Positions 2,997-42,420 of a stretch of DNA of 64,000 nt are shown here, piece by piece. The stretch lies in the sequence record ON528732. One strand, 5' to 3'. The DNA comes from Shigella phage ESh22. Each line of letters starts with the position of its first letter. The stretch's first letter is position 1. A program made the translations under genes and the position numbers. Below the pieces are notes generated by a model. It searched no databases. It was given only the letters and a program-made list of their open reading frames with translations, and was not told the origin of the DNA.

Positions 2997-3021
2997 TAAA
3001 AAAGGCTGCCGAAGCAGCCCT
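2997..3021 (-). terminator. intrinsic terminator (GGCTGC-TTCG-GCAGCC + U6) after rIIB
   Basis: GC stem, UUCG loop, U-tract on minus strand immediately 3' of the ORF ending at 3038. Confidence 0.6.
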
Positions 3022-3037
3022 TTAGGATTCTTACTAA

Positions 3038-4147
3038 TTAAACTTCACGTTTACGCTGAGAAATCAGTTCACCAGCAGTACCTACAACTACGTGTAGTGC
3101 TTCTGAACCATCCCACTCTTTAACAACTTCACGACGGCCATTCACGATTGCTGCTACTTCATAACGGGAAGCTCGCATTTTCATATCTTGGTAATCAGTT
3201 GGTACTGATACAACATCTCGTGGGTGTACACGAACTTTCAGGATGGTATCTCCAGAGAAGCTTGTTACATAATCCCAAGCACCAACATGAAGACCCTGAG
3301 AGCAAGTTACGTTACGGTTATTATCAACCATCCAACGTGGCATCTCTACAATGTTACCCAAATCATTAGGAACCTTGCAAGTACGAGAGTCAAACAGTTT
3401 ACCACCACGGCTAGTTACTTTCTTCCAACCAATAATGTAACCTTCTTCGTCAATCTCAACGTCAAGATGTGATACGAATCCCCAAAGTTGTTCTACAGAA
3501 TCTTTGGATGGGTTCTCCATCAGCTTCTCGAAGAACGCTAATAGATGGGTAAATCCTTCATCACCATTCTTCATCATGGTCAGGATACGGTCTACCAGAG
3601 TTGAACGCATCTGAACAGCACCGTAGTACAGGTTATCACCCTTGATAGTGATAGCACCCTGAGTGAAGTTCTCAATAGACTTACGGATATTCATAAGGTC
3701 AAATGCTTTCTTGTACTCACCTGAAACGACTGCTACTTTGATTTCTGCAAAGTTTGGATGAGTTGATTCAACAATCTCAGACTCTGCACCGAAAGTCATG
3801 ATAACAGAATCACCAGTAATCATGTACTCAATCTTGCTGTTACTTTGCATTGCATCATGTAGAGCATTTACTGGTTCGGCTTTGACTTCTTCTTTCTTAA
3901 CAGCTTTTACAACAGTAGTCTTGGAAGTTGCTTTCTTAGAAGTCTTAGCAGCTTTTGCAATAGACTTCAGAGTTTTGGCTAGTTTAGCTGGAGCCTTATC
4001 CAGAGTTGCTTGGTGACGTTCTACAGCACGACCAACAGAACGAGTTGAAGTTTTGTAACGATTTGCAATGGCAGTCTTGGTCAGTTTACCTTCCATTACC
4101 AGTGCATAGATTTCTGCGTCGATTTGTGCTTTAGTTTTAGTAGTCAT
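3038..4147 (-). CDS. rIIB: rIIB-like protein
   Basis: 369 aa, directly downstream of rIIA on the same strand (conserved rIIA-rIIB order); Lys/Ala-rich basic region; assignment mainly by synteny. Confidence 0.5.
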   Translation of the reverse strand: MTTKTKAQIDAEIYALVMEGKLTKTAIANRYKTSTRSVGRAVERHQATLDKAPAKLAKTLKSIAKAAKTSKKATSKTTVVKAVKKEEVKAEPVNALHDAMQSNSKIEYMITGDSVIMTFGAESEIVESTHPNFAEIKVAVVSGEYKKAFDLMNIRKSIENFTQGAITIKGDNLYYGAVQMRSTLVDRILTMMKNGDEGFTHLLAFFEKLMENPSKDSVEQLWGFVSHLDVEIDEEGYIIGWKKVTSRGGKLFDSRTCKVPNDLGNIVEMPRWMVDNNRNVTCSQGLHVGAWDYVTSFSGDTILKVRVHPRDVVSVPTDYQDMKMRASRYEVAAIVNGRREVVKEWDGSEALHVVVGTAGELISQRKREV

Positions 4148-4182
4148 CTTAATATCTCTCTTTAGTTAATTAACAGTTTCGT

Positions 4183-4211
4183 ATTCTAAGGGGCTTTTCA
4201 GCCCCTGTCAA
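4183..4211 (-). promoter_or_regulatory. promoter-like element with hairpin spacer: TTGACA-GGGGCUGAAAAGCCCC-TTAGAAT
   Basis: Minus-strand reading: consensus -35 TTGACA, 17-nt spacer made entirely of a GGGGCUG/CAGCCCC hairpin, -10-like TAGAAT; in the rIIA-rIIB intergenic gap about 30 nt upstream of the rIIB start. Confidence 0.45.
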
Positions 4212-4217
4212 ACTCTT

Positions 4218-6587
4218 TTAAGACCAAGAATTAGTATCTTCTGGGATGTGCTTAACATCAAACCCTAAGAACTTACCAACCTCAACAGGTGATACTTTAT
4301 TCCAGTCTAAGTTAGAAAGCAAGAAGTTTTCTGTGCGACGATGCTCAAAATACTTCTCAATTTTCCTTTTAAGACGGCTCTTAGCTTTGTCAAGAGACTG
4401 TCTCATCTTAGTCTTAGGCCGCATTGCTTTACGTAAGGACTCCAGAACACTGCTAGTACCCTCATAAGCAATAGTCCCAGCAGAGTAAGCCAAACGTCCA
4501 AACATTGCTTCTACAGCGTCTTCGTTACCTTCTAAGAACATCGTAAATTTGATATCCTTGGAGTAAACATAACCTTTAGACTTCTTCTTATTATTAAACG
4601 TAAATTCACGAGAAATAATATGTTTATCAGTCAGGTCACACTTATTTGCAGCCCACTGGTAAATCATGTGACGATGGTAATCTACCCAATGAGAACTGTC
4701 AACATAATCTTTGAAGACTTGTTCAGTTACTTCAATCCAGTCTTCCGGTACTTTCTTCCAGTTTGCTTTACGGAAGACATACACAGACTGCCCAGTTAAC
4801 TCTGTCACGAGTTTAGCAGCAGTCTCTGGAGAACATGAGAACAAGCCACCAATTACTTCATCACTTTGTGCTTTGATGTAAAGTTGTGGTTCTTCAATCT
4901 CATCAAAGTTCTCTTTAACTTCTGAGTAACCTACTTGGTCATCATTGAAGACAAAAGCTTTGTAGAGTTTAACAACTCCACGAGTAATTGTACGTTTCTC
5001 GTAATGGTGCTCTTTAGATGACATATTGTGAACACTTAGCAGACTCTTATCAAGCATGTGTAGCGTTACAAACGCATCAAATTGTTCCTGACTGTTAAAC
5101 AGGAATGCAATACCATTGTAGCGACGGAAGTTTGACTCTTCTTGTTCACGGTCACGGCAAGCACCACGAATAATCTGATTCTTACCAGTTGTCTTTTCAG
5201 TACCATTCTTGTTTCGACGGTCATTGATAAGGAACAGGTAATTGCTCAACTTATCTTTACTCATTGCACCGAAGATACTAAACATTGCAGAGTCTTGTGT
5301 ATGCGTGGCTGAAGTTGCACGAATACGATTCTCAAGACTGCTGTATTTGTAGTATGCAACAGGTTCATACAAGTTACCGATATTAGGAACCTGATTACCA
5401 TCTTTGTCAAGACGGAAGTTACCATTCTCATCTTTTAAGAAGGATGGTGAACCATCAGTCTCAGCCAATTGACCACGGCGAATACCCAAAAGTTTACGTT
5501 CAAGGTCTGCTAAGTTCTGACCTTGCCACTCTAACTTATCATTAACGTGATAGAATATTTCACGAGCATTCTTCCTCATATCATCATAAGCTTGTGCAGC
5601 GTCAATCAACGTGGGTTTGTCTGCAACCTCTTTAATAACATCCTCAACAATAGTTGAAGTAATCTTTTTAACTGCTTCAACAATTTTGTTTTTGGTAGTG
5701 TCGTTCATCTGCAATGCTTCACGAGATGCAGCAATAGCCACTGAACCAATCGGCATGTAGATGTTTACAAGGTCTACAGAACTACGGAAGAACTGAGGCA
5801 GAACCGTTGTAAATTCTGAACCAAGTAATTCACCCATTTCAACAGGGTATGCAATATTCCCCATTACAACGTTGAAGTGAACACTGTTATTGTTTGAGCG
5901 CCAACCCTCTTTGTATTTCATTGCATCATAAACACCATCTTCACGAGAGATTGAAGTCATTGCTGCAAGAATATCGAAGAACTCAATGTTGCAATCTGGT
6001 TTAACTTTAAAGTATGAGAATACATTACTTGCTTCTTCTTGGAACTTAGAAATGCGACTCTCAGAGACTGCTACTCGAACTGCTAAACCATTTGGTTCAG
6101 TTGTTGGGTTAGTAGTCAGTTTAGTAACTTGAGGAATACCATTCTCAAGATATACAGAGTACTTGTTAACAACACCATCAACGTAGCTTGATACAGTGAA
6201 TGATTGAGCAATTGCAAACGGTGACTTTGAACCGATACCCATAGCACCGATGTAGTCATTTGAGTCATTCTTTGTTGACTCTCCGTAGGTCATGTAAAGT
6301 TTCATTACTTTATCATGGGTCAATCCAGTACCAAAGTCTCGAACTTCAAAGTACGGCTCAAAACGAGTTGGTAAGTGAACCAAGAAAGGTTTATCACTAT
6401 TACCTGAATCAATGTGAGCATCTACTGCGTTACAGGATAACTCACGAATTACAGCACGTTCTTTGTAGGTGTATACACCAGAACTCAGAAGACTAAACAT
6501 TTCAGGTGTCATCTTAATCTGAGCTTGAGAAGTTTCTAAAGTGTCTGAACTTTTGATAATCTCTGCGTGGTCATTTACCATACGCAT
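4218..6587 (-). CDS. rIIA: rIIA protein (GHKL/histidine-kinase-like ATPase N-terminal domain)
   Basis: 789 aa; 'IRELSCNAVDAH' (N-box), 'RDFGTGL' (G1 box) and 'GAMGIGSKSPF' (G2 box) match the ATPase motifs recalled for T4 rIIA; followed by an rIIB-like gene. Confidence 0.8.
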   Translation of the reverse strand: MRMVNDHAEIIKSSDTLETSQAQIKMTPEMFSLLSSGVYTYKERAVIRELSCNAVDAHIDSGNSDKPFLVHLPTRFEPYFEVRDFGTGLTHDKVMKLYMTYGESTKNDSNDYIGAMGIGSKSPFAIAQSFTVSSYVDGVVNKYSVYLENGIPQVTKLTTNPTTEPNGLAVRVAVSESRISKFQEEASNVFSYFKVKPDCNIEFFDILAAMTSISREDGVYDAMKYKEGWRSNNNSVHFNVVMGNIAYPVEMGELLGSEFTTVLPQFFRSSVDLVNIYMPIGSVAIAASREALQMNDTTKNKIVEAVKKITSTIVEDVIKEVADKPTLIDAAQAYDDMRKNAREIFYHVNDKLEWQGQNLADLERKLLGIRRGQLAETDGSPSFLKDENGNFRLDKDGNQVPNIGNLYEPVAYYKYSSLENRIRATSATHTQDSAMFSIFGAMSKDKLSNYLFLINDRRNKNGTEKTTGKNQIIRGACRDREQEESNFRRYNGIAFLFNSQEQFDAFVTLHMLDKSLLSVHNMSSKEHHYEKRTITRGVVKLYKAFVFNDDQVGYSEVKENFDEIEEPQLYIKAQSDEVIGGLFSCSPETAAKLVTELTGQSVYVFRKANWKKVPEDWIEVTEQVFKDYVDSSHWVDYHRHMIYQWAANKCDLTDKHIISREFTFNNKKKSKGYVYSKDIKFTMFLEGNEDAVEAMFGRLAYSAGTIAYEGTSSVLESLRKAMRPKTKMRQSLDKAKSRLKRKIEKYFEHRRTENFLLSNLDWNKVSPVEVGKFLGFDVKHIPEDTNSWS

Positions 6588-6619
6588 AACAGGATTCCTC
6601 TTTGTTGTTTGGTGAGGTA

Positions 6620-6649
6620 ACTATATTCTTTTATAGATACCTCTGTCAA
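6620..6649 (-). promoter_or_regulatory. sigma70-like promoter candidate upstream of rIIA (-35 TTGACA, -10 TATAGT)
   Basis: Minus-strand reading TTGACA-N18-TATAGT about 35 nt upstream of the rIIA ATG. Confidence 0.35.
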
Positions 6650-6650
6650 G

Positions 6651-6830
6651 TTACTTTTTAAATTTCTTTCCAGTTCCGTTACAGTAAGGGCAACAATGCC
6701 CAATACCAGCTATTCCAGAACCTTCACACTCATTACATGGTTCAGTCTCTGCAAAGTACTTGCAAAGCAATACTGCAATAGCAACAATACAACCAAGTGA
6801 TAAGATAATCTCTAACCAATAACCTTGCAT
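6651..6830 (-). CDS. small membrane-anchored protein with two CxxCxGxG (DnaJ-type zinc-finger) motifs, 59 aa
   Basis: Hand-translated, absent from the ORF track (<60 aa): MQGYWLEIILSLGCIVAIAVLLCKYFAETEPCNECEGSGIAGIGHCCPYCNGTGKKFKK; hydrophobic N-terminus, then CNECEGSG and CPYCNGTG. Confidence 0.4.
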   Translation of the reverse strand: MQGYWLEIILSLGCIVAIAVLLCKYFAETEPCNECEGSGIAGIGHCCPYCNGTGKKFKK

Positions 6831-7147
6831 ACATTCTCTCCTACAGTTTTGAACAGGATAAAGCTTCTGTCATGAACGATGCTTGAAGAGACTGCAAAAT
6901 TATCTTCAAGGATTCTTTTGTTCGGATTATAGAAGTGTTCACAGAACAGGTCAAGGGCTTCTTGGTGATTTTGTGGAAGACCTTTGATGTAAACCTTCAA
7001 AGTAATCGTTGTATGAATCTCAGAAGCAAGTTGAGTCTGAGCTTCCTGCATAATCTTGTTAACAAACTTATAACCATCTTCAGTACATTTGATGTTTTCC
7101 CAACGTTCTTCTAAGATAAGGTTGATATTCATCTGCTTAATTTTCAT
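6812..7147 (-). CDS. hypothetical protein (111 aa)
   Basis: ORF track; preceded by a terminator-RBS block. Confidence 0.5.
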   Translation of the reverse strand: MKIKQMNINLILEERWENIKCTEDGYKFVNKIMQEAQTQLASEIHTTITLKVYIKGLPQNHQEALDLFCEHFYNPNKRILEDNFAVSSSIVHDRSFILFKTVGENVCKVIG

Positions 7148-7164
7148 AGCATTCTCCAGAAATT

Positions 7165-7187
7165 AAAAAGGCTCCCGTAGGAGCCTC
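7165..7187 (-). terminator. intrinsic terminator (GGCTCC-UACG-GGAGCC + U5); element about 45 nt long, near-identical to the one at 1205-1229
   Basis: Hairpin + U-tract on minus strand after the NAMPT-like gene; flanks (TATTATAAG ... AATTTCTGGAGAA-ATG) conserved with the 1205 copy. Confidence 0.6.
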
Positions 7188-7200
7188 TTATAATACTCAG

Positions 7201-9027
7201 TTAGAGTTGTTTGTCAATGTTATTTCGAACATCACGAAGGTTTACATAACCATATGGTTGAGAGTTGCTAAACACCAACTTCAAAGCACATTCTGGATTA
7301 TCCAGTACACCTTCAAACTCTGCAAAGCCAAAGCCGTCTACAGCTTCCAGTTTATCACCGTCACACATAGGAACTACACCACCAAAAGCAGACTTCTTAA
7401 GACCACTGTCAGTTTTAGGGTCTTTTGCCAGCATGATTTCTTCACCGTCCATCTGAGCAAGAGTAGCCTTGACAGCAAATGCAAAGGTATCACGAGTCAG
7501 GTACTGGTAAGTGTATGAACCAACACCAAAGACCACGTTAGAGCTTGCAAAACCTTTGTCAGCAAGACGACCAAGAATCTCATTAGCTCGCTCAAGGGTG
7601 ATAGAATCACCATAGATTAAACCGATGTGCTCATCCAGTACTTTGTAACCTTTACTGTTCACACGACCACCAAAGATGTTGTAGAGAGTTGGGATAGCCC
7701 CATCAATCTCTGCTGTCAGCATACGCTTAACAACAATATTTCCGGTCTTATTAAAATCTTTCAAGTTAACTGTTTCAGCAGTTTCAAAATCTTCTTTATC
7801 AACAACTAACTCATAACCTTCAGAGATAAGCCATGCAGCAAACCCATAACCCATATCCTGCAACTCACAATACTGAATAAGATTCAGGAGTTTATCATTG
7901 TTCGGTGCAATTTCTTTCATATGTTTGTAGAACATACTCTTGGCATTTTCCCACTCAACAGCACGATAACCAGCAACAATGTGAATGGGGTCTCCAGAGT
8001 CTGGACGTATTACCAGTTTACCTTCACGCTTCAGGATAACTTCACGGAGTTCTGGGAGAATCTCTGTAACAGTACGCCAGAAGTTGTAAGTATCTGAAAC
8101 AACACTTGCAATACCAGTTGGATATACGTCTACCAGTAAATGCTCAAAGGTTTTAACCTCACCACGCCAACGTTTTGCATCCAGCAAGCTATCAGACTGC
8201 ATGATGTACTGTGAATGAATATCTTCCTCTGACAAGTCTTTCATATTCCATGAAATGTTTGCGCACATCACAGAGTGTTCAGTAGCTGGTACAGAGTTGC
8301 CGATATCACTTACTTCCATAAACTGACCATAAGCACGTTTAGCAGTGTAGACAGCAGGGAAGCTGTCAGTACCTTTAAAGCTTGTCAGGTGACCTACAGC
8401 GTTAAAAGCATCATCTGTAAAGCCTGACATACCACGCATTGCAAAATCATGACACTGCCAAGGTAAATGGAAGTCATTATCACAGGTTACATCAGCCCAT
8501 TGCTTACAGATGCGTTTGTAGTGTAATGCAATAGTGGCAATCGTAGAAGCTTTCCAAATTTCAGCAGAGAAAGCATCTTCCAGATATCCAGCTACCCAAT
8601 GGAAGCCCTCTACAGTATTCTTGAAGATAATCATTGGAACACGCATTGGAACCACTGTACCCTCTTCTACAGAGTAGACTTCGACTGGCAGATAGCCTAA
8701 ATCGTGAAGTTCTTCCCAATGCTCACGACCAATCGCATCTGCACCGAGAACACCGTTCATGATTTCTAAGATTTCGTCAACAACTTCTTTCTTATCTCGT
8801 TCAAAGAAGGTAGCATTCCAGTGGTCTACTAAGTAATCTTTAACGAAACGTTGAATACCAAAAGCAACTACACCGTCAATATCAAGTGGAGTGTTAAACC
8901 ACTTATCACCACGAGGTGTAAGATTTAGCATCAGATACTGTGTAGCACTTGGGTACTGGTAGATATGGCCAGCTTTGTAAGCATCCGCATTAAGACCTGC
9001 TGGTACTGCATAAACTGATTTAGACAT
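7201..9027 (-). CDS. nicotinamide phosphoribosyltransferase (NAMPT/NadV)-family protein; possibly a nicotinamide ADP-ribose transferase
   Basis: ORF 7201..9069, start trimmed to the ATG at 9027 (MSKSVYAVPAGLNADAYKAGH...) preceded by a GAGAGAGA RBS; about 609 aa, longer than typical NAMPT; family assigned from N-terminal region and overall pattern recalled for NadV/PncB-like proteins. Confidence 0.7.
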   Translation of the reverse strand: MSKSVYAVPAGLNADAYKAGHIYQYPSATQYLMLNLTPRGDKWFNTPLDIDGVVAFGIQRFVKDYLVDHWNATFFERDKKEVVDEILEIMNGVLGADAIGREHWEELHDLGYLPVEVYSVEEGTVVPMRVPMIIFKNTVEGFHWVAGYLEDAFSAEIWKASTIATIALHYKRICKQWADVTCDNDFHLPWQCHDFAMRGMSGFTDDAFNAVGHLTSFKGTDSFPAVYTAKRAYGQFMEVSDIGNSVPATEHSVMCANISWNMKDLSEEDIHSQYIMQSDSLLDAKRWRGEVKTFEHLLVDVYPTGIASVVSDTYNFWRTVTEILPELREVILKREGKLVIRPDSGDPIHIVAGYRAVEWENAKSMFYKHMKEIAPNNDKLLNLIQYCELQDMGYGFAAWLISEGYELVVDKEDFETAETVNLKDFNKTGNIVVKRMLTAEIDGAIPTLYNIFGGRVNSKGYKVLDEHIGLIYGDSITLERANEILGRLADKGFASSNVVFGVGSYTYQYLTRDTFAFAVKATLAQMDGEEIMLAKDPKTDSGLKKSAFGGVVPMCDGDKLEAVDGFGFAEFEGVLDNPECALKLVFSNSQPYGYVNLRDVRNNIDKQL

Positions 9028-9042
9028 AATTTTATCTCTCTC

Positions 9043-9070
9043 AATAGTGGGGCTTTTCAGCCCCTTCAAA
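9043..9070 (-). promoter_or_regulatory. GGGGCUGAAAAGCCCC hairpin element (identical to the core at 4190-4205), no U-tract
   Basis: Exact 16-nt repeat of the hairpin in the rIIB promoter-like element; sits between the Prs-like gene stop and the NAMPT-like gene start. Confidence 0.4.
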
Positions 9071-9075
9071 GTTTA

Positions 9076-9957
9076 TTACTCAATGTTTGCTACAGTTACT
9101 TGTGAGAACTGATTCAGACCACGGTCTTCAGCATCCCCTAGCGAGTTTGTAGTGTAGATATGGTCAATGCCATTGTCAAGAAGATTTTCAACACCTTTTG
9201 AGAAAATCCCATGAGTTACATAAAGTTCTACACGGCTTGCACCAGCTTCACGAAGATGTTTTGCAGCTTCTACAAAGGTACGACCACCATCACAGATATC
9301 ATCGAGAATCATGACAGCTTTACCAGTTAAGTCTACATCATCAAGGATTCGCATACCAGTGATTTCACCAGTTTTCAGATTACGAATCTTAGCCATTGTG
9401 ATATATGGCTTATCAACCTCTTTAGCAGCCTCTTCAGTCTTCTTGGCTGCACCTGCATCTGGAGCCACTAAGAAATCAATACGTGGGTCACTTGCAAAGT
9501 GTACTGCTGCTTCTTTCTGGGGCAGGTTATGGAAGCACTTAAACAAGTTCTCTGCTACGTTGCTGTGAGTATCTAAAGCACATACTGCATCAAACTCCAT
9601 AGCATTTACCAGATTTGCAAAGACTTTCAATGCTGCTGCATCACCTTTAAACATGTGACGGTCATAACGAGCATTTGGTAAGAAGCCAAATACAGCAGTC
9701 TTCATAGTTGATTTCTGAGGAATTAGTTTGTCAATAGCTTCTTTCGCCAGAGCTAAAGCAAACAGAGTATCTTTGTCGTAACCCTGTACAGTGAGGATTA
9801 CATTCTCAATCTGGGAAGCATTCTGTTCAGCATAGGCTACTAGGTCTTCTGAGAAGTTACCACCAATTTCTCCAGACGGAAACTGGATAATGTTGAACTC
9901 TTCTTGGTGAGCACCTTTTTTACGTGAGTGTAACAGTACACTAATAATAGTTTTCAT
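9076..9957 (-). CDS. ribose-phosphate pyrophosphokinase (Prs)-family protein; PRPP synthetase or ADP-ribose pyrophosphate synthetase-like
   Basis: 293 aa; 'FPSGE', 'FGFLPNARYDR', 'LDTHS' and the PRPP-binding loop 'VMILDDICDGGRTF' follow the Prs pattern; immediately upstream of the NAMPT-like gene. Confidence 0.75.
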   Translation of the reverse strand: MKTIISVLLHSRKKGAHQEEFNIIQFPSGEIGGNFSEDLVAYAEQNASQIENVILTVQGYDKDTLFALALAKEAIDKLIPQKSTMKTAVFGFLPNARYDRHMFKGDAAALKVFANLVNAMEFDAVCALDTHSNVAENLFKCFHNLPQKEAAVHFASDPRIDFLVAPDAGAAKKTEEAAKEVDKPYITMAKIRNLKTGEITGMRILDDVDLTGKAVMILDDICDGGRTFVEAAKHLREAGASRVELYVTHGIFSKGVENLLDNGIDHIYTTNSLGDAEDRGLNQFSQVTVANIE

Positions 9958-9969
9958 ATTTAATATCTC

Positions 9970-10263
9970 TCAATCAAAAGTTACAAAGGTTACAGCCATA
10001 GCTGTTTTGCATTTCTTTGGGTCTACAGTATGATAAATCACTAAACAGTTACCTGTACCGTCTGGAACTGGTTTTGTCCAAGTGCGTTCAATGTTTGGCT
10101 CTCCAAACTCTTTGTAGTAGCCATTAGATTGATGGTCTACCATCTCAAGTGCAAGGGCATCTGGAACGTGACCACGTATCATGTACATTTCACAACCGTT
10201 ACCACCTTCACTAATAAGTTCTTTGATTTCCCATTGTTCTCTAGCCATTATAAGTCGCCTCAT
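9970..10263 (-). CDS. hypothetical protein (97 aa)
   Basis: ORF track; same strand and operon context. Confidence 0.45.
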   Translation of the reverse strand: MRRLIMAREQWEIKELISEGGNGCEMYMIRGHVPDALALEMVDHQSNGYYKEFGEPNIERTWTKPVPDGTGNCLVIYHTVDPKKCKTAMAVTFVTFD

Positions 10264-17136: not shown

Positions 17137-17191
17137 AGACTCTCCAAAGTTAATTTTAGAGGGTCTTTTACGACCCTCATAGTTATTGAAA

Positions 17192-21577: not shown

Positions 21578-22110
21578 TCATAAGTTTCTCCGTGATTTGC
21601 AAACTCTCTATGGAGTTCTTCTCTTTTCTTTCTAACAACATTTTCAGCCTCAGCTACAGAATCAAACAGTCCGAGGTGATAGCAAACTTTATTATGTTTA
21701 ACCTGCGCAACCCATCTGCATCTTTGCTTGTGGTAATAGACACCCTTCACACCAGACTTGTTGTCTTTCCTCTTAGTTGCGTTGCAGTTATTATCTGACC
21801 TGCTGCACTCTCTTAAATTGTCGAACCAGTTTTCGTGCCTAATACCGTTCTTATGGTCAACTAATTTAGGTAGGTAACCTTTTATGTATAAAAATGCTAA
21901 CCTGTGTGCTGCGTACCTTTTACCAAAAAGTTTTATATAAACATAGCCGCTATGGTGTTTAACTCCAGCTACAGAGCCAGCTTTAGCCTTACCAGTTCTA
22001 TCTACTAACCAAGTAAAGACCCCTGTTTCGGGGTCATAGTGTAGGTATTCTTTAAGAATCTGCTGAGTTAACATTTGGTGTCCACCCATACTTATCAAAA
22101 GTGAAATCAT
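21574..22110 (-). CDS. HNH homing endonuclease with AP2-type DNA-binding domain
   Basis: 178 aa; 'VDHKNGIRHENWFDNLR' HNH motif; 'GVKGVYYHKQRCRWVAQV...GLFDSVAEAE' AP2-like domain; ORF start overlaps the 3' end of the exonuclease gene, so the true start may be an internal ATG. Confidence 0.7.
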   Translation of the reverse strand: MISLLISMGGHQMLTQQILKEYLHYDPETGVFTWLVDRTGKAKAGSVAGVKHHSGYVYIKLFGKRYAAHRLAFLYIKGYLPKLVDHKNGIRHENWFDNLRECSRSDNNCNATKRKDNKSGVKGVYYHKQRCRWVAQVKHNKVCYHLGLFDSVAEAENVVRKKREELHREFANHGETYE

Positions 22111-23098
22111 CTTTCTTGTTTCTTTCCTGATAGGCTAAGAAGAAGTGTTGCTGCATTAACTCTAAAGGTGTTCTGGTAATTGTCTGGCCATCCCATGAAA
22201 CATAAGTATAAGAGTCTTTCTTAGCGTAGAGTTCGTAAATTGCATCAAGACATTCTTTATAAGTGGTTTTACCTTCAAGAGCTTTCATTACTGCAACTTT
22301 ACCAGCACCTTTTAAACCAAAGTAGTTATCTGCATTATCACCAGCGACAGCTTGGTAGCAGAGGAATTTAAATCCCACTCCGACCGCCTTCTTAGCTTTT
22401 GGTGTAGATTTTATTGGACAATCCCAAATCTCACCAACGTTATTATCAGCAATAAAAATCAATGGGTTTTTCTCATAAGTCATATCAATGCAATAAGTAC
22501 CTTCAGCTTGACGAAGGTCTTTGTCAATACTCATGAGGGCAGCTTTTTTACCCATCTTCTCAGCTTTCGCAATAACGATAGAGTCAGCTTCAAATCCATC
22601 AAGAATCAGCTTAAACTCAGGTCGTGACAGAAGATACTCACGACAAGCAACTAGGTGCGTAGGTGTCACCGCTTCTTTTCTGTTACCTTGATATTGGTGT
22701 TCAAGACCTTTGATATCCTTGTGTTTGTGAACACCTTTCTCAGTAAGGTAACCCATCCATTTTCGCTCTTTACCAACGACTTTCAACCACTCCTGAAGAA
22801 CCTGCTGAGTCGCCATAATAGCTTCTTTTTCACTCTTGGCTTCCTTCCAAGTCTGTCTTTCCCATTCATCTTCATCAAAGTCAAGTCCAAGTTCCTCTGT
22901 AAGAACTCTCTGGTCAGCTAACCATTGTGAAGATAACTTAGCACTATCAAAGTCATCAGACTCTTCAGCGGTAAGTTTATTCACATACTTGTACTTTGCT
23001 TTTTCAACTACACAAGCACCCTTGTAAGCAATGCTGTCTGCGTCAATGAAGACGTGTGTAACGCTTTCTGGGAGCTTTGTAAGTGTATACTGATTCAT
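22052..23098 (-). CDS. 5'-3' exonuclease / flap endonuclease (FEN/RNase H-like)
   Basis: 348 aa; N-terminal 'VFIDADSIAYKGA' acidic motif typical of FEN family; in the replication block. Confidence 0.5.
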   Translation of the reverse strand: MNQYTLTKLPESVTHVFIDADSIAYKGACVVEKAKYKYVNKLTAEESDDFDSAKLSSQWLADQRVLTEELGLDFDEDEWERQTWKEAKSEKEAIMATQQVLQEWLKVVGKERKWMGYLTEKGVHKHKDIKGLEHQYQGNRKEAVTPTHLVACREYLLSRPEFKLILDGFEADSIVIAKAEKMGKKAALMSIDKDLRQAEGTYCIDMTYEKNPLIFIADNNVGEIWDCPIKSTPKAKKAVGVGFKFLCYQAVAGDNADNYFGLKGAGKVAVMKALEGKTTYKECLDAIYELYAKKDSYTYVSWDGQTITRTPLELMQQHFFLAYQERNKKDDFTFDKYGWTPNVNSADS

Positions 23099-23111
23099 TG
23101 TACCTCCATAC

Positions 23112-23143
23112 GAAAAAGCCCTATACGTTCTGTACAGGGCTTT
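23112..23143 (-). terminator. intrinsic terminator (AGCCCU-loop-AGGGCU + U5)
   Basis: Hairpin + U-tract on minus strand between the SSB-like gene and the exonuclease gene. Confidence 0.5.
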
Positions 23144-23160
23144 GTAGTAACTACTGAGAA

Positions 23161-24006
23161 TTAATCTTCAGTATCGAAATCATCATCATCATCCGGTGTT
23201 GGTAGGTCGTCATCGTCATCACCACCTTTATCATCATCAGAATCTTTTGCATCTTCTTCAGAGATTTCACCGTTGTCTTCAACACCTGCGAGACCAAGCA
23301 GTGCCAGTTCGTCTTCATCAAGTTCAGTCTCGGTTGCACCACCAGTACCACCAGTGTATGGAACCAGAGTATCAATGATAAACTGCTCCTGAATTGGCTT
23401 AGTCAGAACGTTACCTTCGAAGGTGTAGAAGTGAGTCGAAAGAATCACACTACCAAAAGAACCATTACCGACTGCAATATCTGGACAGACAACATCGTAA
23501 GTCTTGTCATCGTCATGCTTGTCAGATTTTGCTGCCTTAATTTTCTTCATAGGTTGCTTAACCGCAACACGTTTACCGTTCAGTTCTTCAACCAGCATCA
23601 CAGGAAAACTCTGTTTTGCTGACCATACAGCACCATCTTTGTAAGCTGCTGAACGGCTAACCTTCAGGATGTAATAAGTGTCAGCTTCGAATGGAGGCTC
23701 ACAACCAAACTTCTCTTCAAAGTCATCTGCATCAACAGTCTCTGTAGTGACCTTATCCCAACCATCTGGATTTTTTTTAGACTTGGTGAACTCTTTAAAG
23801 AGCTTGTTACCGTCTTTTGCCAGAATTGAAACGCTGTAATTACAGTCTTTGCCTGGGAAATGTTTGTCTACAGACTTGCCCTTCTGAGGGCGTGGAATAG
23901 TATTCAGGTAGTAGAACCAAACATCTTTCAGCAGGTAACGATAAGTTTCAAGTTCTTTACCGTTGTATTTTTCTACCGGAGATTTCATTTTAACAACTTT
24001 AGACAT
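23161..24006 (-). CDS. candidate single-stranded DNA-binding protein with poly-acidic C-terminal tail
   Basis: 281 aa; C-terminus '...DDDKGGDDDDDLPTPDDDDDFDTED' resembles the acidic tails of T7 gp2.5/T4 gp32-type SSBs; in the replication block. Confidence 0.35.
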   Translation of the reverse strand: MSKVVKMKSPVEKYNGKELETYRYLLKDVWFYYLNTIPRPQKGKSVDKHFPGKDCNYSVSILAKDGNKLFKEFTKSKKNPDGWDKVTTETVDADDFEEKFGCEPPFEADTYYILKVSRSAAYKDGAVWSAKQSFPVMLVEELNGKRVAVKQPMKKIKAAKSDKHDDDKTYDVVCPDIAVGNGSFGSVILSTHFYTFEGNVLTKPIQEQFIIDTLVPYTGGTGGATETELDEDELALLGLAGVEDNGEISEEDAKDSDDDKGGDDDDDLPTPDDDDDFDTED

Positions 24007-24095
24007 TTTAATACCTCTTTCTCAAATTAACTATCAATTCAAATCTTATTGGGAGTACAATCTTACATGCTTCATACCCCCATGTCAAACATTTT

Positions 24096-24233
24096 AAGCA
24101 GCTTTCTTGGCAGCTTTACGAGCAGTCTTACCAGTGCGAACTCGCTTCGTTTCGTAATGTTCAGCAGACTTACCAGCAGTTGCTTTCAGGGAATCACCAA
24201 ATACTGCTTCAAATGCTTTAGAGTGTTTCATTT
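24096..24233 (-). CDS. small basic protein (45 aa)
   Basis: Hand-translated MKHSKAFEAVFGDSLKATAGKSAEHYETKRVRTGKTARKAAKKAA; its ATG overlaps the stop of the upstream ORF (ATGA). Confidence 0.3.
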
Positions 24234-24506
24234 TGTGCTCCGATATATTTCATATTCAAATGTTTTTAAAGTCAAGGTAAAAAGATAAATTGTTTCAGCT
24301 TTGTCAATTGACAGTGCAAACAAGTCTTTATCTTCACGGCTTTCATGTTCATAAGTAACATCATGCCCCTTGTTGATTAGTACTTTAGCGAACTCTTCAA
24401 TCTTAGTCAAGCAATCTTTTGCAAATTTTTTAGTGCTATTTTCTGAATAGAAGGGCGTGATGCCCTCCTTCAGATAACTATCAGTCAGTTTCAAACGGGC
24501 AGTCAT
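24228..24506 (-). CDS. hypothetical protein (about 92 aa)
   Basis: Downstream part of ORF-track 24228..24773; only the segment after the primase-helicase stop (24481) is likely coding; candidate ATGs at 24506/24509/24515. Confidence 0.35.
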   Translation of the reverse strand: MTARLKLTDSYLKEGITPFYSENSTKKFAKDCLTKIEEFAKVLINKGHDVTYEHESREDKDLFALSIDKAETIYLFTLTLKTFEYEIYRSTK

Positions 24507-31649: not shown

Positions 31650-31710
31650 TAGTGTTGACAAGGTGCTCATGGAAGAGTACCATATACTCTATATTGTATA
31701 GGAGACTTGT

Positions 31711-38823: not shown

Positions 38824-41199
38824 TTATGCAGTTCTTACCCAAGCCATTAGTTTAATGTAAGTGTTAAGAACACTGAATGCTGCACCAGAACCAGTCGCAC
38901 CAGTGTCACCACTGAATGTGTGGTTGTGTCCACCAATGCCTACACCGTGAGCATGAGCACCTACCCAACTTGTTCTACCTGTCCAAGTTCTGGAAGCATA
39001 GAAGTTAACTGGCGCACCATAAGTGAAGTTAGAACCTGTCCAGCTATGCAAACCTTGGCTACCACTCATTGCAAAAGCACCGTCTGCAACGTAGAACGAG
39101 TTATTATCACTTCTAAACCATCCAAAGTTACCAGAGATTTCCATATTACCTCTGTCATGGTCGTGAGCACCCTGACCATCTGTGTACTTAGTTCCATAGT
39201 CAAACCAAGAAGTTGTCCCAGAGAAGCCGTGAGTGTGTGCAGGGATGTGACCAACACTTAATGCAACCGTATCAGCACCACCAAGACCTTTCACATCAGA
39301 GCCATTTTCAGAACCAATCCTAATAGTTCTGTTTGCACCCTCAGTTAAGTAAGTCCAAGTAGTGCCTGGGAAAGCTGTATTTGGGTTGACATTAGAAGCA
39401 AAGAACGTCACAATACCAACTGGATACACTTTCTTAAGGTCTGTAGCATCAGTTACAGCGGAAGCAATACGTTGGTCTACTTCAGCCTTGGTGTAAGCAC
39501 CAAGTTCAGAAGGTGTAGGCTTAGCCTTATCTGTATAGATTTTAGTCCAAAACTCTTCAAAACCAACACTATCCCTTGCTGTTCTATAGTAGATTCCACC
39601 ATTTTTGTATTCGAACCTAAGCTGTGCAGAAGGTGTAGATGCACCAATTCCAAGGTGCATTTGGTAAACTAAGTGAGATGAACCACCACTTGCACTTGTA
39701 ACATTGTACAAACCTGTTTTTGCATCCCAAGCAACACCTGTGCCATCACCTACTTCTGTTCCAGTTCCAGATACACCAGACAACATATATCTTGAGTTTG
39801 CAGCAGATTGTGTGTAGTATCTTGAGTCAAAGTTTGACCAATCGCTTGGTCTTACTTGTCCAACAATATTCACATGTGTATTCACATCTAAATCAGTACC
39901 AATATTGATTGCCTTTCCTGTTACATCATTGTTAAGTACCACATTGTTTTGACCAGCATCACCAATACCCAACCACCATCTCCTGCTCCCATTAGCATTA
40001 TGTGCAGACATGTAGATTCCAGAGTCTTGTACTGTTGCCTGTAGTCTAAAAGGATTGTCGCTGTCAGTATTGATAGTCTGTGGACTAGTAAAAACGTTTG
40101 CAGCATTAGTTCTTGCAAGAACGTTCGTCAAAGAGCTTGGAACATATCTTGTATCAAAGTTAGAAAAGTCACTTGGTTTTACCTGACCAGCTACATTGAT
40201 AGCTTTGTTAAATGAAAACTCTGTAGCAATTTTCAAGTTAACATTTGTCATCTGGTTTGCTAAAACAATCTCAGACTGCGTACCATCTGGTTGACCTACA
40301 TACCAAGTTCCTGTCCCAGCACTGTTATAACCACGCATAAATAATGCAGCATTCTCTGTAACCGCTCTTAAGTTAAGTGCATTACTATCTGCAATAACAT
40401 AAGTCTTACCATTGAAGTTGTTAACCCCAACAAAGTTATTACTTGCATTAAGTTTTGCAAATCTCTGGTCAGCAGCAGTCTGTGTAAAGAATCTTGCATC
40501 AAGGTTATTCCAGTTATTAGGCTGAACCTGTCCATTGATTTCAAAATTCTTATCAACACTAACAGAGTTTGTGCCAAGAGTCAACGTAGCACCCTTGCTA
40601 TTAACTAATGTAACATCAGTACTAGAAGTCAAGTTACCAACTGTGAATCTTAAAGCATTATTTGAATCCCTTGCTTCAATATATGCTCCACCATCTGGTA
40701 AGATACTTTTAAGTGTTAGACCAACACCGTTGATATTAATGATTTGTCTTGCCAAGAAAGTATTTTCAGTTTCCTTCATAGCATATCTTGCATCATTTTC
40801 AATATTAGTTCTCATACCTAATTCATTAGGAGATGGTTTATTAAGTGTGTGATAAACTGTTGCAGACCTTGTGGCATCGTTTACAGTTAATCTTAAAGCA
40901 CTCGCATTAATTCTAAAGGTTTTGGCAGTGTCACCAAGAATAACCTCAGAAGAACCTGTTGGGTCTAATAAGTCTTTTCCACCGTATCTTAATTTAACGA
41001 TTCCAAGATTCCCTACCATATCTCCACCAGTTAGTTGTAAGAATCTTTCTAGTTTGAAAGAGGCAAGGAAATTTGCATAGGTCATTTTACGGTCTTCATC
41101 ACCAAGCATATCAGACCTTTTGATAACTCTTAGGTGAAGTAAATCTTCTGAGCGAACTGTGTCAATACTGTTTAGCTCACTTAGCTTATATTCAGCCAT
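38824..41199 (-). CDS. tail fibre protein (long, His-rich C-terminal receptor-binding region)
   Basis: 791 aa; Gly/Ser/Thr/Asn-rich repetitive body; C-terminal HxH repeats (HIPAHTHGF, GAHDHD, GAHAHGVGIGGHNHTF); ends '...MAWVRTA' like the neighbouring fibre. Confidence 0.7.
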   Translation of the reverse strand: MAEYKLSELNSIDTVRSEDLLHLRVIKRSDMLGDEDRKMTYANFLASFKLERFLQLTGGDMVGNLGIVKLRYGGKDLLDPTGSSEVILGDTAKTFRINASALRLTVNDATRSATVYHTLNKPSPNELGMRTNIENDARYAMKETENTFLARQIININGVGLTLKSILPDGGAYIEARDSNNALRFTVGNLTSSTDVTLVNSKGATLTLGTNSVSVDKNFEINGQVQPNNWNNLDARFFTQTAADQRFAKLNASNNFVGVNNFNGKTYVIADSNALNLRAVTENAALFMRGYNSAGTGTWYVGQPDGTQSEIVLANQMTNVNLKIATEFSFNKAINVAGQVKPSDFSNFDTRYVPSSLTNVLARTNAANVFTSPQTINTDSDNPFRLQATVQDSGIYMSAHNANGSRRWWLGIGDAGQNNVVLNNDVTGKAINIGTDLDVNTHVNIVGQVRPSDWSNFDSRYYTQSAANSRYMLSGVSGTGTEVGDGTGVAWDAKTGLYNVTSASGGSSHLVYQMHLGIGASTPSAQLRFEYKNGGIYYRTARDSVGFEEFWTKIYTDKAKPTPSELGAYTKAEVDQRIASAVTDATDLKKVYPVGIVTFFASNVNPNTAFPGTTWTYLTEGANRTIRIGSENGSDVKGLGGADTVALSVGHIPAHTHGFSGTTSWFDYGTKYTDGQGAHDHDRGNMEISGNFGWFRSDNNSFYVADGAFAMSGSQGLHSWTGSNFTYGAPVNFYASRTWTGRTSWVGAHAHGVGIGGHNHTFSGDTGATGSGAAFSVLNTYIKLMAWVRTA

Positions 41200-41211
41200 T
41201 TATAAATCCTC

Positions 41212-41242
41212 TTTCTAGGGGCTGTGCAGCCCCTTATAAAAT
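41212..41242 (-). promoter_or_regulatory. GGGGCUG-CAC-CAGCCCC hairpin element between the two tail-fibre genes (no U-tract)
   Basis: Same GGGGCUG/CAGCCCC stem as the elements at 4190 and 9049; flanked by a TAGAAAG box and the AAGAGG RBS. Confidence 0.4.
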
Positions 41243-41244
41243 AA

Positions 41245-42420
41245 TTACGCAGTTCTCTTCCAAACATATACAACATAAGAAGGTTGCTCAATATTAAATG
41301 CTTGTCCAGCACCAAATGCACCAGTTGTGCCTGAGTGAGTGTGTTCAGAAGATTGAACTGTCACAGTACCAGAGTGTCCATGCGAACCAATTACAACACT
41401 GTGTCCATGTGCTCCAATATACACACTGTGAGAGTGGTTACCACCAACTGAAGAGTTAACGTTGAATGTATGTGTATGAACCCCATCAAAGTCTGTATAT
41501 GACGCATTACCAATACCTGCATCAGCCGATGCTGTGATAGCGTTCACACCACCCCTGTCAGAACCCCTCAATGGAATCCTGTGGCTGTGACTACCAGCAC
41601 TGCTTACAGAACCATTAACGTTATGAGCGTGGCTTCCAGAGTCATTTGTGGCCTTAGAATCATAATCAAAACTTGATGTGTTCCTAATCCCATAGTCAAA
41701 GCTAGAAATTACTACTGTTGCATTATGAGAGTGCCCACCACCAGTTAGCAACACAGAGTGTGTGTGACTTGGAATGTTATTTTGTGTAAGTGTTGCAGTA
41801 GCAGAACCAAATACTGATTCTACAGGTCTTGTATCTGTGTCATAACCAACAAGAGACCTTCCTTTAGAAACTAACTCCCAAGTACCACCACAAAGTAAAT
41901 ATGTAGTTGGGTTCGCAGGGTTAACTGATAAATGAATAGTACCAATTGGATAGCTATCCTGAATAGCTCTGTATAAAGCATTCACAGCTTTTGCAGTAGC
42001 ATACTTATCAGCATCTTCAGAATAAGAGTTTGAATATGTCCAGTTTTGGATATTAGACAAACCTACTTGAATCTTGTTGGTGTTGTGAGGATTATTCTTG
42101 TCATTAATGTGGTTCTGGATAAGAGTATTGACTTCATCACTTGATAGAATATTAAGATTCTGTCTAGCCTCTTCAACACTGACCACATCTGACAAGTTAT
42201 TAGCAGCCACTAATTGGAGTGCGTTAACAACATTCCCAAGGTCTACGTGAACCTTTGTAACACCGTGTGGGTTATTTCTCAAAGATGCGTGTGGAGCAAG
42301 TAATTGCTCAAGTGTGCATCGCCTATCCTCAATACCTTGCTTAAGGTGAAAGATATCACTTAAATCAATAGGTAATGAGGCTTGAGGTAATGCACTAATT
42401 TGAATTTCACCGACTGCCAT
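41245..42420 (-). CDS. tail fibre / receptor-binding protein with dense HxH repeats
   Basis: 391 aa; 'GGGHSHNATV', 'GSHAHNVNG', 'GSHSHRIP', 'VHTHTFNVN', 'GNHSHSVYIGAHGHSVVIGSHGHSG', 'EHTHSG'; C-terminus '...YVVYVWKRTA'. Confidence 0.7.
   Translation of the reverse strand: MAVGEIQISALPQASLPIDLSDIFHLKQGIEDRRCTLEQLLAPHASLRNNPHGVTKVHVDLGNVVNALQLVAANNLSDVVSVEEARQNLNILSSDEVNTLIQNHINDKNNPHNTNKIQVGLSNIQNWTYSNSYSEDADKYATAKAVNALYRAIQDSYPIGTIHLSVNPANPTTYLLCGGTWELVSKGRSLVGYDTDTRPVESVFGSATATLTQNNIPSHTHSVLLTGGGHSHNATVVISSFDYGIRNTSSFDYDSKATNDSGSHAHNVNGSVSSAGSHSHRIPLRGSDRGGVNAITASADAGIGNASYTDFDGVHTHTFNVNSSVGGNHSHSVYIGAHGHSVVIGSHGHSGTVTVQSSEHTHSGTTGAFGAGQAFNIEQPSYVVYVWKRTA

Follow-up and report, generated by a model that had tools for sequence, protein, structure and literature searches.

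A GGGGCU/AGCCCC stem-loop recurring at three gene junctions of a Felix O1-like Shigella phage, with one copy in the spacer of a predicted rIIB promoter

Gene junctions carrying the stem-loop

The window, meaning the whole 64,000-nucleotide stretch of Shigella phage ESh22 (ON528732) analysed here, derives from a Mooglevirus of the Ounavirinae, a Felix O1-like phage and not a member of the T4-like Straboviridae. A megablast search with positions 3000-10000 matched Shigella phage ESh21 (Ounavirinae, Mooglevirus) with an identity of 99.9%; Felix O1-like relatives, about 270 of them, followed at 75-85%. Across its full length the window aligns with ESh21 in two blocks of ~99.5% identity, with 95.3% over 22082-24364, and is oriented as the reverse complement of the ESh21 record.

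Three gaps between genes encoded on the minus strand of the window contain a short G/C-rich hairpin: the rIIA/rIIB junction (site 1), the junction of a PRPP-synthetase-like gene with a NAMPT gene (site 2), and that between tail fibre 1 and tail fibre 2 (site 3) (Table 1). On the plus strand the identical 16-nt sequence GGGGCTTTTCAGCCCC is found at 4190-4205 and 9049-9064, letters and positions agreeing with an earlier note on this DNA, and the variant GGGGCTGTGCAGCCCC at 41218-41233; the note had recognised this variant as well, but had set its end 3 nt too far, at 41236. The corresponding coding-strand RNA is GGGGCUGAAAAGCCCC at sites 1 and 2 and GGGGCUGCACAGCCCC at site 3. All three sites share one layout, consisting of a stop codon, 11-12 nt, the hairpin, a ribosome-binding site and an ATG, so that the described placement between a stop codon and the next ribosome-binding site holds throughout.

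At site 1 the TAA of rIIA (4220-4218) is followed by 6 nt and then by TTGACA, and the hairpin begins 12 nt past the stop codon, giving a coding strand of UAA-AAGAGU-UUGACA-GGGGCUGAAAAGCCCC-U-UAGAAU...AAAGAGAGA-N8-AUG. The site 2 hairpin begins 11 nt past the tandem UAAUAA stop (9078-9073) of the PRPP-synthetase-like gene and stops 6 nt short of the NAMPT ribosome-binding site GAGAGAG (9042-9036), with the ATG at 9027 (UAAUAA-ACUUUGAA-GGGGCUGAAAAGCCCC-ACUAUU-GAGAGAG-N8-AUG). At site 3 the distance from the tail fibre 1 stop (41247-41245) is likewise 11 nt, and 5 nt separate the hairpin from the tail fibre 2 ribosome-binding site AGAGGA (41212-41207), the ATG lying at 41199 (UAA-UUAUUUUAUAA-GGGGCUGCACAGCCCC-UAGAA-AGAGGA-N7-AUG).

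Table 1. Stem-loops at the three junctions and predicted signals upstream of rIIB.
Feature	Position	Strand	Remarks
Site 1 stem-loop, A-GGGGCU-GAAA-AGCCCC-U	4189..4206	minus	-13.5 kcal/mol; 7 bp including the outer A-U
rIIB promoter -35 box, TTGACA	4206..4211 (4211-4206)	minus	11/12 match for the promoter
rIIB promoter -10 box, TAGAAT	4183..4188 (4188-4183)	minus	17-nt spacer here, 18 nt in Felix-like phages
Predicted rIIB transcription start	4175..4178	minus	predicted from standard sigma-70 geometry, 6-8 nt past the -10 box
rIIB ribosome-binding site, AAAGAGAGA	4155..4163	minus	8 nt before the ATG (4147-4145)
Site 2 stem-loop, GGGGCU-GAAA-AGCCCC	9049..9064	minus	-12.8 kcal/mol
Site 3 stem-loop, A-GGGGCU-GCAC-AGCCCC-U	41217..41234	minus	-12.7 kcal/mol

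The pattern GGGGCT-N4-AGCCCC has three matches in the window against 0.00 expected from 100 shuffles, and widening the loop to 3-30 nt adds 0 further matches within the window. A genome-wide search of the kind that the earlier note had proposed recovered the same three copies from the complete ESh21 genome, together with one long-loop copy that lies outside the window. Folding places each of the three hairpins at -12.7 to -13.5 kcal/mol, dominant in its local ensemble, and contexts of 111-141 nt showed no extended duplex with the flanks, the stem staying at 6-7 bp. An Rfam 15 scan of the whole window at the gathering score returned seven tRNAs only, with no match at sites 1-3.

No contiguous U-tract follows any of the three hairpins in the window, their coding-strand tails (UAGAAUAC, ACUAUUGA and AGAAAGAG) holding 2, 3 and 0 U in the first 8 nt, and no A-tract precedes them. 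The noted lack of a U-tract is thus true of all three copies in this window, while sites 2 and 3 of the Felix-like relatives carry a short U4. A terminator acting on the antisense strand was considered and rejected, the plus-strand tails GUCAAACU, UUCAAAGU and UAUAAAAU likewise being without a U-tract.

The exact 16-mer also has matches in at least 120 stretches of IMG/VR contigs, for the most part in other kinds of phage or other contexts; visual inspection shows a T-run after many of these copies and, immediately after many others, a ribosome-binding site and ATG. Since it is a generic hairpin of many unrelated phages in this exact-match scan, the 16-mer alone marks no family. The composite TTGACA-hairpin-TTA is, in IMG/VR, confined to contigs of ~51-94 kb that are largely already-identified Ounavirinae.

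Relatives of the three junctions were assembled as 30 rIIB loci and 28 tail-fibre loci from IMG/VR, to which Felix O1, HK3 and LPML1 were added from GenBank. All three sites occur at the same gene junctions in ~30 relatives spanning Felixounavirus, Mooglevirus and Suspvirus. Site 1 was found in 27/29 sequences as TTGACA-(A)-GGGGCT-(GAAA|GCAA|TTGA|TCAA)-AGCCCC-T-TAGAAT, and site 3 in 29/29. Of 23 relatives, 18 keep site 2, its stem unchanged and its loop in nine versions; in the remaining 5 loci (L129, L132, L145, L148 and one further locus) and in Felix O1, where it is ORF128, an HNH endonuclease gene stands in place of the whole spacer. Because this gene replaces the site wholly in Felix O1 and five relatives, whatever site 2 contributes is dispensable. 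A distinct, reused element, as first described, is therefore present: it is conserved and intergenic, and serves as neighbour to the non-structural genes rIIB and NAMPT and to a late tail-fibre gene.

A predicted rIIB promoter and its PeSL-like layout

The window contains nine sigma-70 sites matching at 11/12 or better, versus 1.75 in Markov shuffles, and site 1 is among the three sites of this class that are fully intergenic. Its 17-nt spacer consists of the 16-nt hairpin plus one T, as the earlier note had it. In the relatives, the -35 box is constant except for one TTGACT and the -10 box is only TAGAAT or TAAAAT, with the bases directly downstream varying freely. From its sequence match and conservation, site 1 is the sole credible sigma-70 promoter among the three sites, its activity being predicted. 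In Felix O1, the RT-PCR data of the genome paper place the rIIB peak at 10 min and the rIIA peak at 25 min (Whichard et al. 2010, PMC3185647), differing times that fit a separate promoter for rIIB; the available part of the paper names no promoter before rIIB.

The claim of a hairpin embedded in promoter boxes does not extend to the other two sites. The proposed TTTGAA/ACTATT boxes at site 2 and TTTATAA/TAGAAAG boxes at site 3 fail the sigma-70 scan and are not kept as boxes in relatives. A special class of promoters with structured spacers, serving early and late genes at all three sites, would account for the conserved 11/12 match of site 1 with a hairpin for its spacer, and for the -35-like TTTACA or TTTGAA that precedes several copies; we nevertheless consider it very improbable. 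ACTATT (site 2) and TAGAAA (site 3) lack the key A2 or T6, the relatives read ATTTTG, ACTTTG, TTTTAA or CTTTCT at the equivalent positions, and the RT-PCR results available for Felix O1 assign ORFs 127-129 to one expression class (peak 25 min) and ORFs 76 and 77 to one class (peak 60 min) (PMC3185647).

A promoter regulated by cruciform extrusion was also set aside, arms of 6 bp being too short for extrusion.

Site 1 closely resembles a kind of cassette described from the T4-like phages RB49/phi1, PST and nt-1, the promoter-early stem-loop or PeSL (Arbiol et al. 2010, PMC2839356; Comeau et al. 2014, PMC4122927). In a PeSL the stop codon of the upstream gene is followed by a sigma-70 promoter, a Gn-loop-Cn stem-loop located most often in the stretch separating the -35 box from the -10 box, a ribosome-binding site and an ATG, and each lineage has a stem consensus of its own, with no binding protein known for it (PMC2839356, PMC4122927). 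In RB49/phi1 reporters, lacZ read-through fell by about as much with the stem-loop as with rrnB T1, and PeSLs were found to mediate recombination with crossovers localised to the loop, indels or mini-circles between copies counting among the traits of the class (PMC2839356, PMC4122927). Our scan of RB49 recovered TTGACA-GGGGATCGGTGATCCCC-TATACT, TTGACG-GGGATCGCGAGATCCCC-TATACT and TTGACG-CGGGGAGAAATCCCCGT-TATACT, which were taken as PeSLs. Site 1 has the same architecture (TTGACA-GGGGCTGAAAAGCCCCT-TAGAAT), with the hairpin filling a 17-nt spacer: the boxes lie 17 nt apart with a Gn-loop-Cn stem-loop between them, the stop codon precedes the -35 box, and a ribosome-binding site and ATG follow. 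On this architecture, site 1 is classed as a new, Ounavirinae member of the PeSL kind. The literature search found no paper naming both 'PeSLs' and 'Felix'.

Sites 2 and 3 share the stem-loop with PeSLs but lack the sigma-70 promoter, and are promoter-less stem-loops of the same family as site 1. A further apparent difference is that sites 1-3 flank conserved core genes, and not ORFans in the hyperplastic regions in which the repeated PeSL family is concentrated. The two phage groups are alike in having a lineage-specific stem consensus, and in the group of the window phage there are additional composites in which a hairpin overlaps or follows a -10 box. In the window, TTGACA-16-TATTAT adjoins the terminator after NAMPT (7217-7166) and is kept in relatives, TTGACA-17-TACCAT overlaps a hairpin at 31655-31683, and a 10-bp inverted repeat encloses TTGACT-17-TAATAT in its loop (38815-38760); at 31186, ESh21 reads TTGACA-AGGGGCATAAAAGCCCC-TACTTT. 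Outside the window, in the early ORFan region of ESh21 and Felix O1, GGGG...CCCC cassettes are repeated ~10 times, and in some of them the loop includes a -10 box.

Variation in the stem and the loop

For the Felix-like subgroup, the stem has a diversity of 0-0.014 and the loop one of 0.25-0.31, compared with 0.02-0.06 in neighbouring intergenic sequence and 0.11-0.42 at third codon positions. Low diversity in the stem and flanks combined with high diversity in the loop indicates that the stem and the rest of the spacer are under purifying selection and that the loop is essentially free. The loop as a mutational hotspot was considered and dropped, since its diversity is only ~1.5-2.5x that of third codon positions and fits neutrality plus inversion.

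Among 34 distinct hairpins the six pairs are essentially invariant, and because of this invariance a covariation test within the clade is nearly uninformative. The sole covariation, in four sequences of the Felix O1-type site 3, replaces the outer A-U by G-C together with a G-C to G.U change. An AACCCC variant of site 1 (L143, L152) forms a weaker hairpin on the sense strand. The Felix-like relatives have AUUUUGAGAG after the site 2 hairpin and UUUUAAGAGG after that of site 3, each with a short U4 tail; the Moogle-like lineage to which the window belongs has lost the tail and retained the hairpin.

More distant Ounavirinae are more informative as to whether RNA or DNA is the level that matters. 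LPML1 and L150 show 56-59% identity in rIIB; between rIIA and rIIB they retain TTGACA and carry another hairpin, AAGUGGUC/GGCCACUU, around a -10-like TCTAAT. Paralogous cassettes, at least 10 of them, occur in LPML1 as UUUUGUAAA-GGGG(UUU|AUU|GUU)-N4-...CCCC-UUUGAAGAAC, in which pair 5 shows the compensatory states U-A, A-U and G-C, as well as U.G wobbles for which pairing is possible on the sense strand alone; the early-region cassettes of ESh21 read GGGGUUUA/UAAGCCCC. The compensatory changes and sense-only wobbles of the LPML1 and ESh21 cassettes favour a sense-strand RNA over a DNA palindrome read by a protein.

This bears directly on whether the element is a sequence-specific binding site, either as an operator bound by a dimeric protein or as an RNA stem that a factor of phage or host recognises, with the bound protein or factor co-regulating rIIB, NAMPT and tail fibre 2, for instance by shutting off rIIB through binding in the promoter spacer. 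An identical stem at three unlinked sites, nearly invariant in ~30 genomes around four free central nucleotides, has the look of classic half-sites and a spacer, and at site 1 the palindrome lies exactly in the promoter spacer; the recurrent stem of the LPML1 lineage, GGGGUCU/AGACCCC, suggests concerted change, and covariation within the clade is minimal (one pair, four sequences). We regard such a binding site as unlikely, however: the inner stems of related cassettes vary in ways that break the DNA palindrome, the Felix O1-type site 3 and site 2 of L130/L131 alter or shift the half-sites while keeping the fold, and sites 2 and 3 offer no promoter to regulate. No candidate protein was identified, and the stems of PeSLs in T4-like phages are likewise lineage specific without a known binding protein.

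The freely varying loop and the short stem also bear on the earlier suggestions of an RNase III processing site or an antiterminator target; neither the RNase III site nor a loop-reading target of the boxB type holds up. Lambda nut sites include a hairpin, boxB, and sites 1 and 2 of the window resemble it superficially, having a G/C stem, a closing U-A and a GNRA loop (GAAA); the resemblance goes no further, as the relatives have UUGA, UCAA, UAAA, UUAU, GUAC and other loops, and no boxA-like CGCUCUUA occurs within 80 nt of the sites, the best matches having 2-3 mismatches of 8. RNase III needs roughly two helical turns, and the 6-7 bp stem, with no longer duplex formed by the flanks, falls well below the ~20 bp or more that this implies. 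With tRNAs as the only Rfam families in the window, an RNA-processing or antitermination signal of either type is highly improbable.

The loops themselves show a distinctive pattern of change. Pairs of loops that are reverse complements of each other occur on identical flanks at all three sites (TTGA/TCAA, TTTA/TAAA, TTCA/TGAA, TTAT/ATAA and ATCA/TGAT). At site 3, the coding-strand loop is GCAC in the window, ACAC in L153/L154 and GUGU in ESh21, the last being the exact reverse complement of the L153/L154 loop despite the ~99.5% identity between the window and ESh21. A canonical UACG terminator loop is similarly flipped, to CGUA, in L130. The simplest explanation for the reverse-complement loops is recurrent inversion of the loop.

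Such flips raise the possibility that the elements are hotspots for recombination or template switching at the DNA level, forming cassette boundaries for module exchange, a role already proposed for PeSLs, with any effect on transcripts being secondary. The flipped loops lie on identical flanking haplotypes at all three sites, the comparison of ESh21 with L153/L154 included; the HNH endonuclease gene sits precisely in place of the site 2 spacer in several phages; and site 3 separates the highly variable C-terminus of one tail fibre from a conserved N-terminus. Recombination with crossovers in the loop is also on record for PeSLs (PMC2839356, PMC4122927). We consider this an unlikely account of the sites, however, since strong purifying selection on the stem and short spacer beside core genes argues for a function in expression and not for a scar, the sense-strand bias of the wobbles points to RNA, and the flip in a canonical UACG terminator marks loop inversion as a general by-product of inverted repeats.

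Terminator context and a proposed role in expression

The canonical terminators of the window have UUCG or UACG loops and U5-7 tails. Many gaps in the window (1187, 7148, 10757, 15307 and 19427) show a stop codon, a hairpin with U5-7, a ribosome-binding site and an ATG in succession and no promoter between. Sites 1-3 form the U-poor end of a continuum with these gaps, and 17137-17191 is U-poor as well. In Felix O1, the site 3 orthologue gggggctgtacagccctcttt is already annotated as terminator t76, rho-independent by TransTerm (Whichard et al. 2010, PMC3185647, Table 2).

Sites 1-3 are like intrinsic terminators, t76 included, in placing a G/C-rich 6-7 bp sense-strand stem with a tetraloop shortly past the stop codon of a gene, and differ from them in the window by having neither a U-rich tract nor an upstream A-tract. 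Without the U-tract, classical intrinsic termination by E. coli RNA polymerase should be weak, and at sites 2 and 3 any termination must be leaky because the downstream genes have no promoter of their own. A second comparison is with the intercistronic stem-loops that stabilise mRNA, such as the REP hairpins of malE-malF, hairpins at 3' ends being able to block PNPase and RNase II. By analogy, sites 1-3 are stable structures between cistrons for which a U-tract would be unneeded, and the upstream segment could gain a protected 3' end; they are, however, much shorter than REP elements and contain no REP sequence.

The reading that we favour, with moderate confidence, is that sites 1-3 are sense-strand RNA stem-loops that attenuate the upstream transcripts or protect their 3' ends, fused at rIIB to a promoter for restarting transcription. 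The polycistronic early/middle and late transcripts would each carry a G/C stem of 6-7 bp with any 4-nt loop, the hairpin forming as RNA polymerase reads through from the upstream gene. It would then serve as a pause site or leaky attenuator and also stand in the way of 3'-to-5' exonucleases, so that the upstream cistron would be expressed or stabilised more than the downstream one. Residual read-through would suffice for NAMPT and tail fibre 2, and at rIIA/rIIB the site 1 promoter would start a new rIIB transcript downstream of the hairpin. A stem-loop inside a conserved promoter spacer, with the predicted restart downstream of it, would make site 1 a compact terminator/promoter cassette of the PeSL type.

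A more specialised part for the GGGGCU/AGCCCC stem itself, as a lineage-specific recognition or recombination element of the Ounavirinae, is suggested by the identical stem at three unlinked junctions across genera, the GGGGUCU/AGACCCC variant of a distant lineage and the flipped loops, but has a low probability in our estimate. If it were a recognition element, a phage or host factor might read the stem and thereby coordinate rIIB, NAD-salvage and tail-fibre genes; if it were a recombination element, hairpins extruded from DNA might drive PeSL-like module exchange, such as tail-fibre swaps and the gain or loss of homing endonucleases, in a second, unrelated phage subfamily.

By their own statement, the authors of the Felix O1 genome paper had no explanation for the passage of transcription through its many intergenic hairpins (PMC3185647). 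The literature matches listed include no transcriptome of a Felix O1-like phage, the 2010 RT-PCR table being the only such data found. The conserved, hairpin-filled promoter predicted before rIIB and the promoter-less stem-loops at the PRPP-synthetase/NAMPT and tail-fibre junctions offer one testable answer. That answer would involve no new kind of mechanism, and would amount to conserved and fairly ordinary regulatory punctuation. It would also mean that PeSL-type cassettes, so far described only for T4-like phages, organise Felix O1-like genomes as well, which may be useful in annotating and engineering the phages used for therapy and typing of Salmonella, E. coli and Shigella.

Further promoter and hairpin composites

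Downstream of NAMPT, a promoter-like TTGACA-16-TATTAT stops 1 nt short of the canonical terminator hairpin, AAGAGGCUCCUACGGGAGCCUUUU, an arrangement that relatives keep as TTGACA-16-TATGAT-AAGA-hairpin. A transcript started here would have its 5′ end within the hairpin and would escape the terminator. Two other composites occur in the window (Table); in the minus-strand one, the -10 box lies within the loop of a 10-bp inverted repeat, CAAGATGGTG..CACCATCTTG. The intercistronic hairpin GAGGGUCGUAAAAGACCCUC, the fourth that lacks a U-tract, is located in a 55-nt gap, directly 5′ of a GGAG ribosome-binding site.

Table. Coordinates of the features (window numbering unless an accession is given)
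Feature	Coordinates	Strand	Location	kcal/mol
TTGACA-16-TATTAT with AAGAGGCUCCUACGGGAGCCUUUU	7217-7166	-	3′ of NAMPT	
TTGACA-17-TACCAT, GGUGCUC..GAGUACC overlapping -10 box	31655-31683	+		
TTGACT-17-TAATAT	38815-38760	-		
GAGGGUCGUAAAAGACCCUC	17159-17178	-		-13.8
HNH homing-endonuclease gene (Felix ORF128)	NC_005282 83214-83705		Felix O1	
Site 1 loop	4196-4199			
Site 2 loop	9055-9058			
Site 3 loop	41224-41226			

About 12 repeated intergenic cassettes of 63-88 bp separate small ORFs in the early region of the close relative ESh21 (ON528731 26053-31251, outside the window), and of Felix O1 (8.4-12.8 kb). They take the form (A)GTGCTTTACA-T-GGGGYTTA(loop)TAAGCCCC-AGATAAAG...CCTAAACTGGAGAWTCTAAA-ATG, the loop holding a -10-like TAGTAT, and their string GTGCTTTA resembles the T4 MotA box. 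These cassettes correspond to the 57-bp repeats described in the Felix O1 paper (PMC3185647).

Local differences among relatives

The PRPP-synthetase-like gene closes with a tandem stop, UAAUAA (9073-9078, minus strand). An HNH homing-endonuclease gene lies between this gene and NAMPT in Felix O1 and four related loci (L129, L132, L145 and L148), where it replaces the whole spacer, including the site 2 hairpin. Relative to ESh21, the window has approximately 500 bp (21583-22081) that ESh21 lacks, and the following 2.3 kb (22082-24364) share only 95.3% identity, versus ~99.5% elsewhere, suggesting that 21583-24364 is a patch of local replacement or recombination. Under the name 'Listeria phage LPML1', record OK283618.1 (L183, L185 and L186) contains an Ounavirinae genome; it encodes rIIA/rIIB, NAMPT and nrd proteins and has promoters of the TTGACA type. 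The Listeria host given for it looks doubtful.

Probable loop inversion in the stem-loops

Across window sites 1-3, the intergenic GGGGCT-N4-AGCCCC stem-loops, and loci L123-L180 of Felix O1-like relatives, the 4-nt loops include reverse-complement pairs with otherwise identical flanks: TTGA/TCAA, TTTA/TAAA, TTCA/TGAA, TTAT/ATAA and ATCA/TGAT. At site 3, between the tail fibre genes, the coding-strand loop is GUGU in ESh21, GCAC in the window and ACAC in relatives L153 and L154. Over 41126-41328 the window shows three mismatches to ESh21, each of them inside this loop. A canonical terminator also has a flipped loop, UACG versus CGUA in relative L130. The simplest explanation for the loop pairs is recurrent loop inversion (flip-flop).
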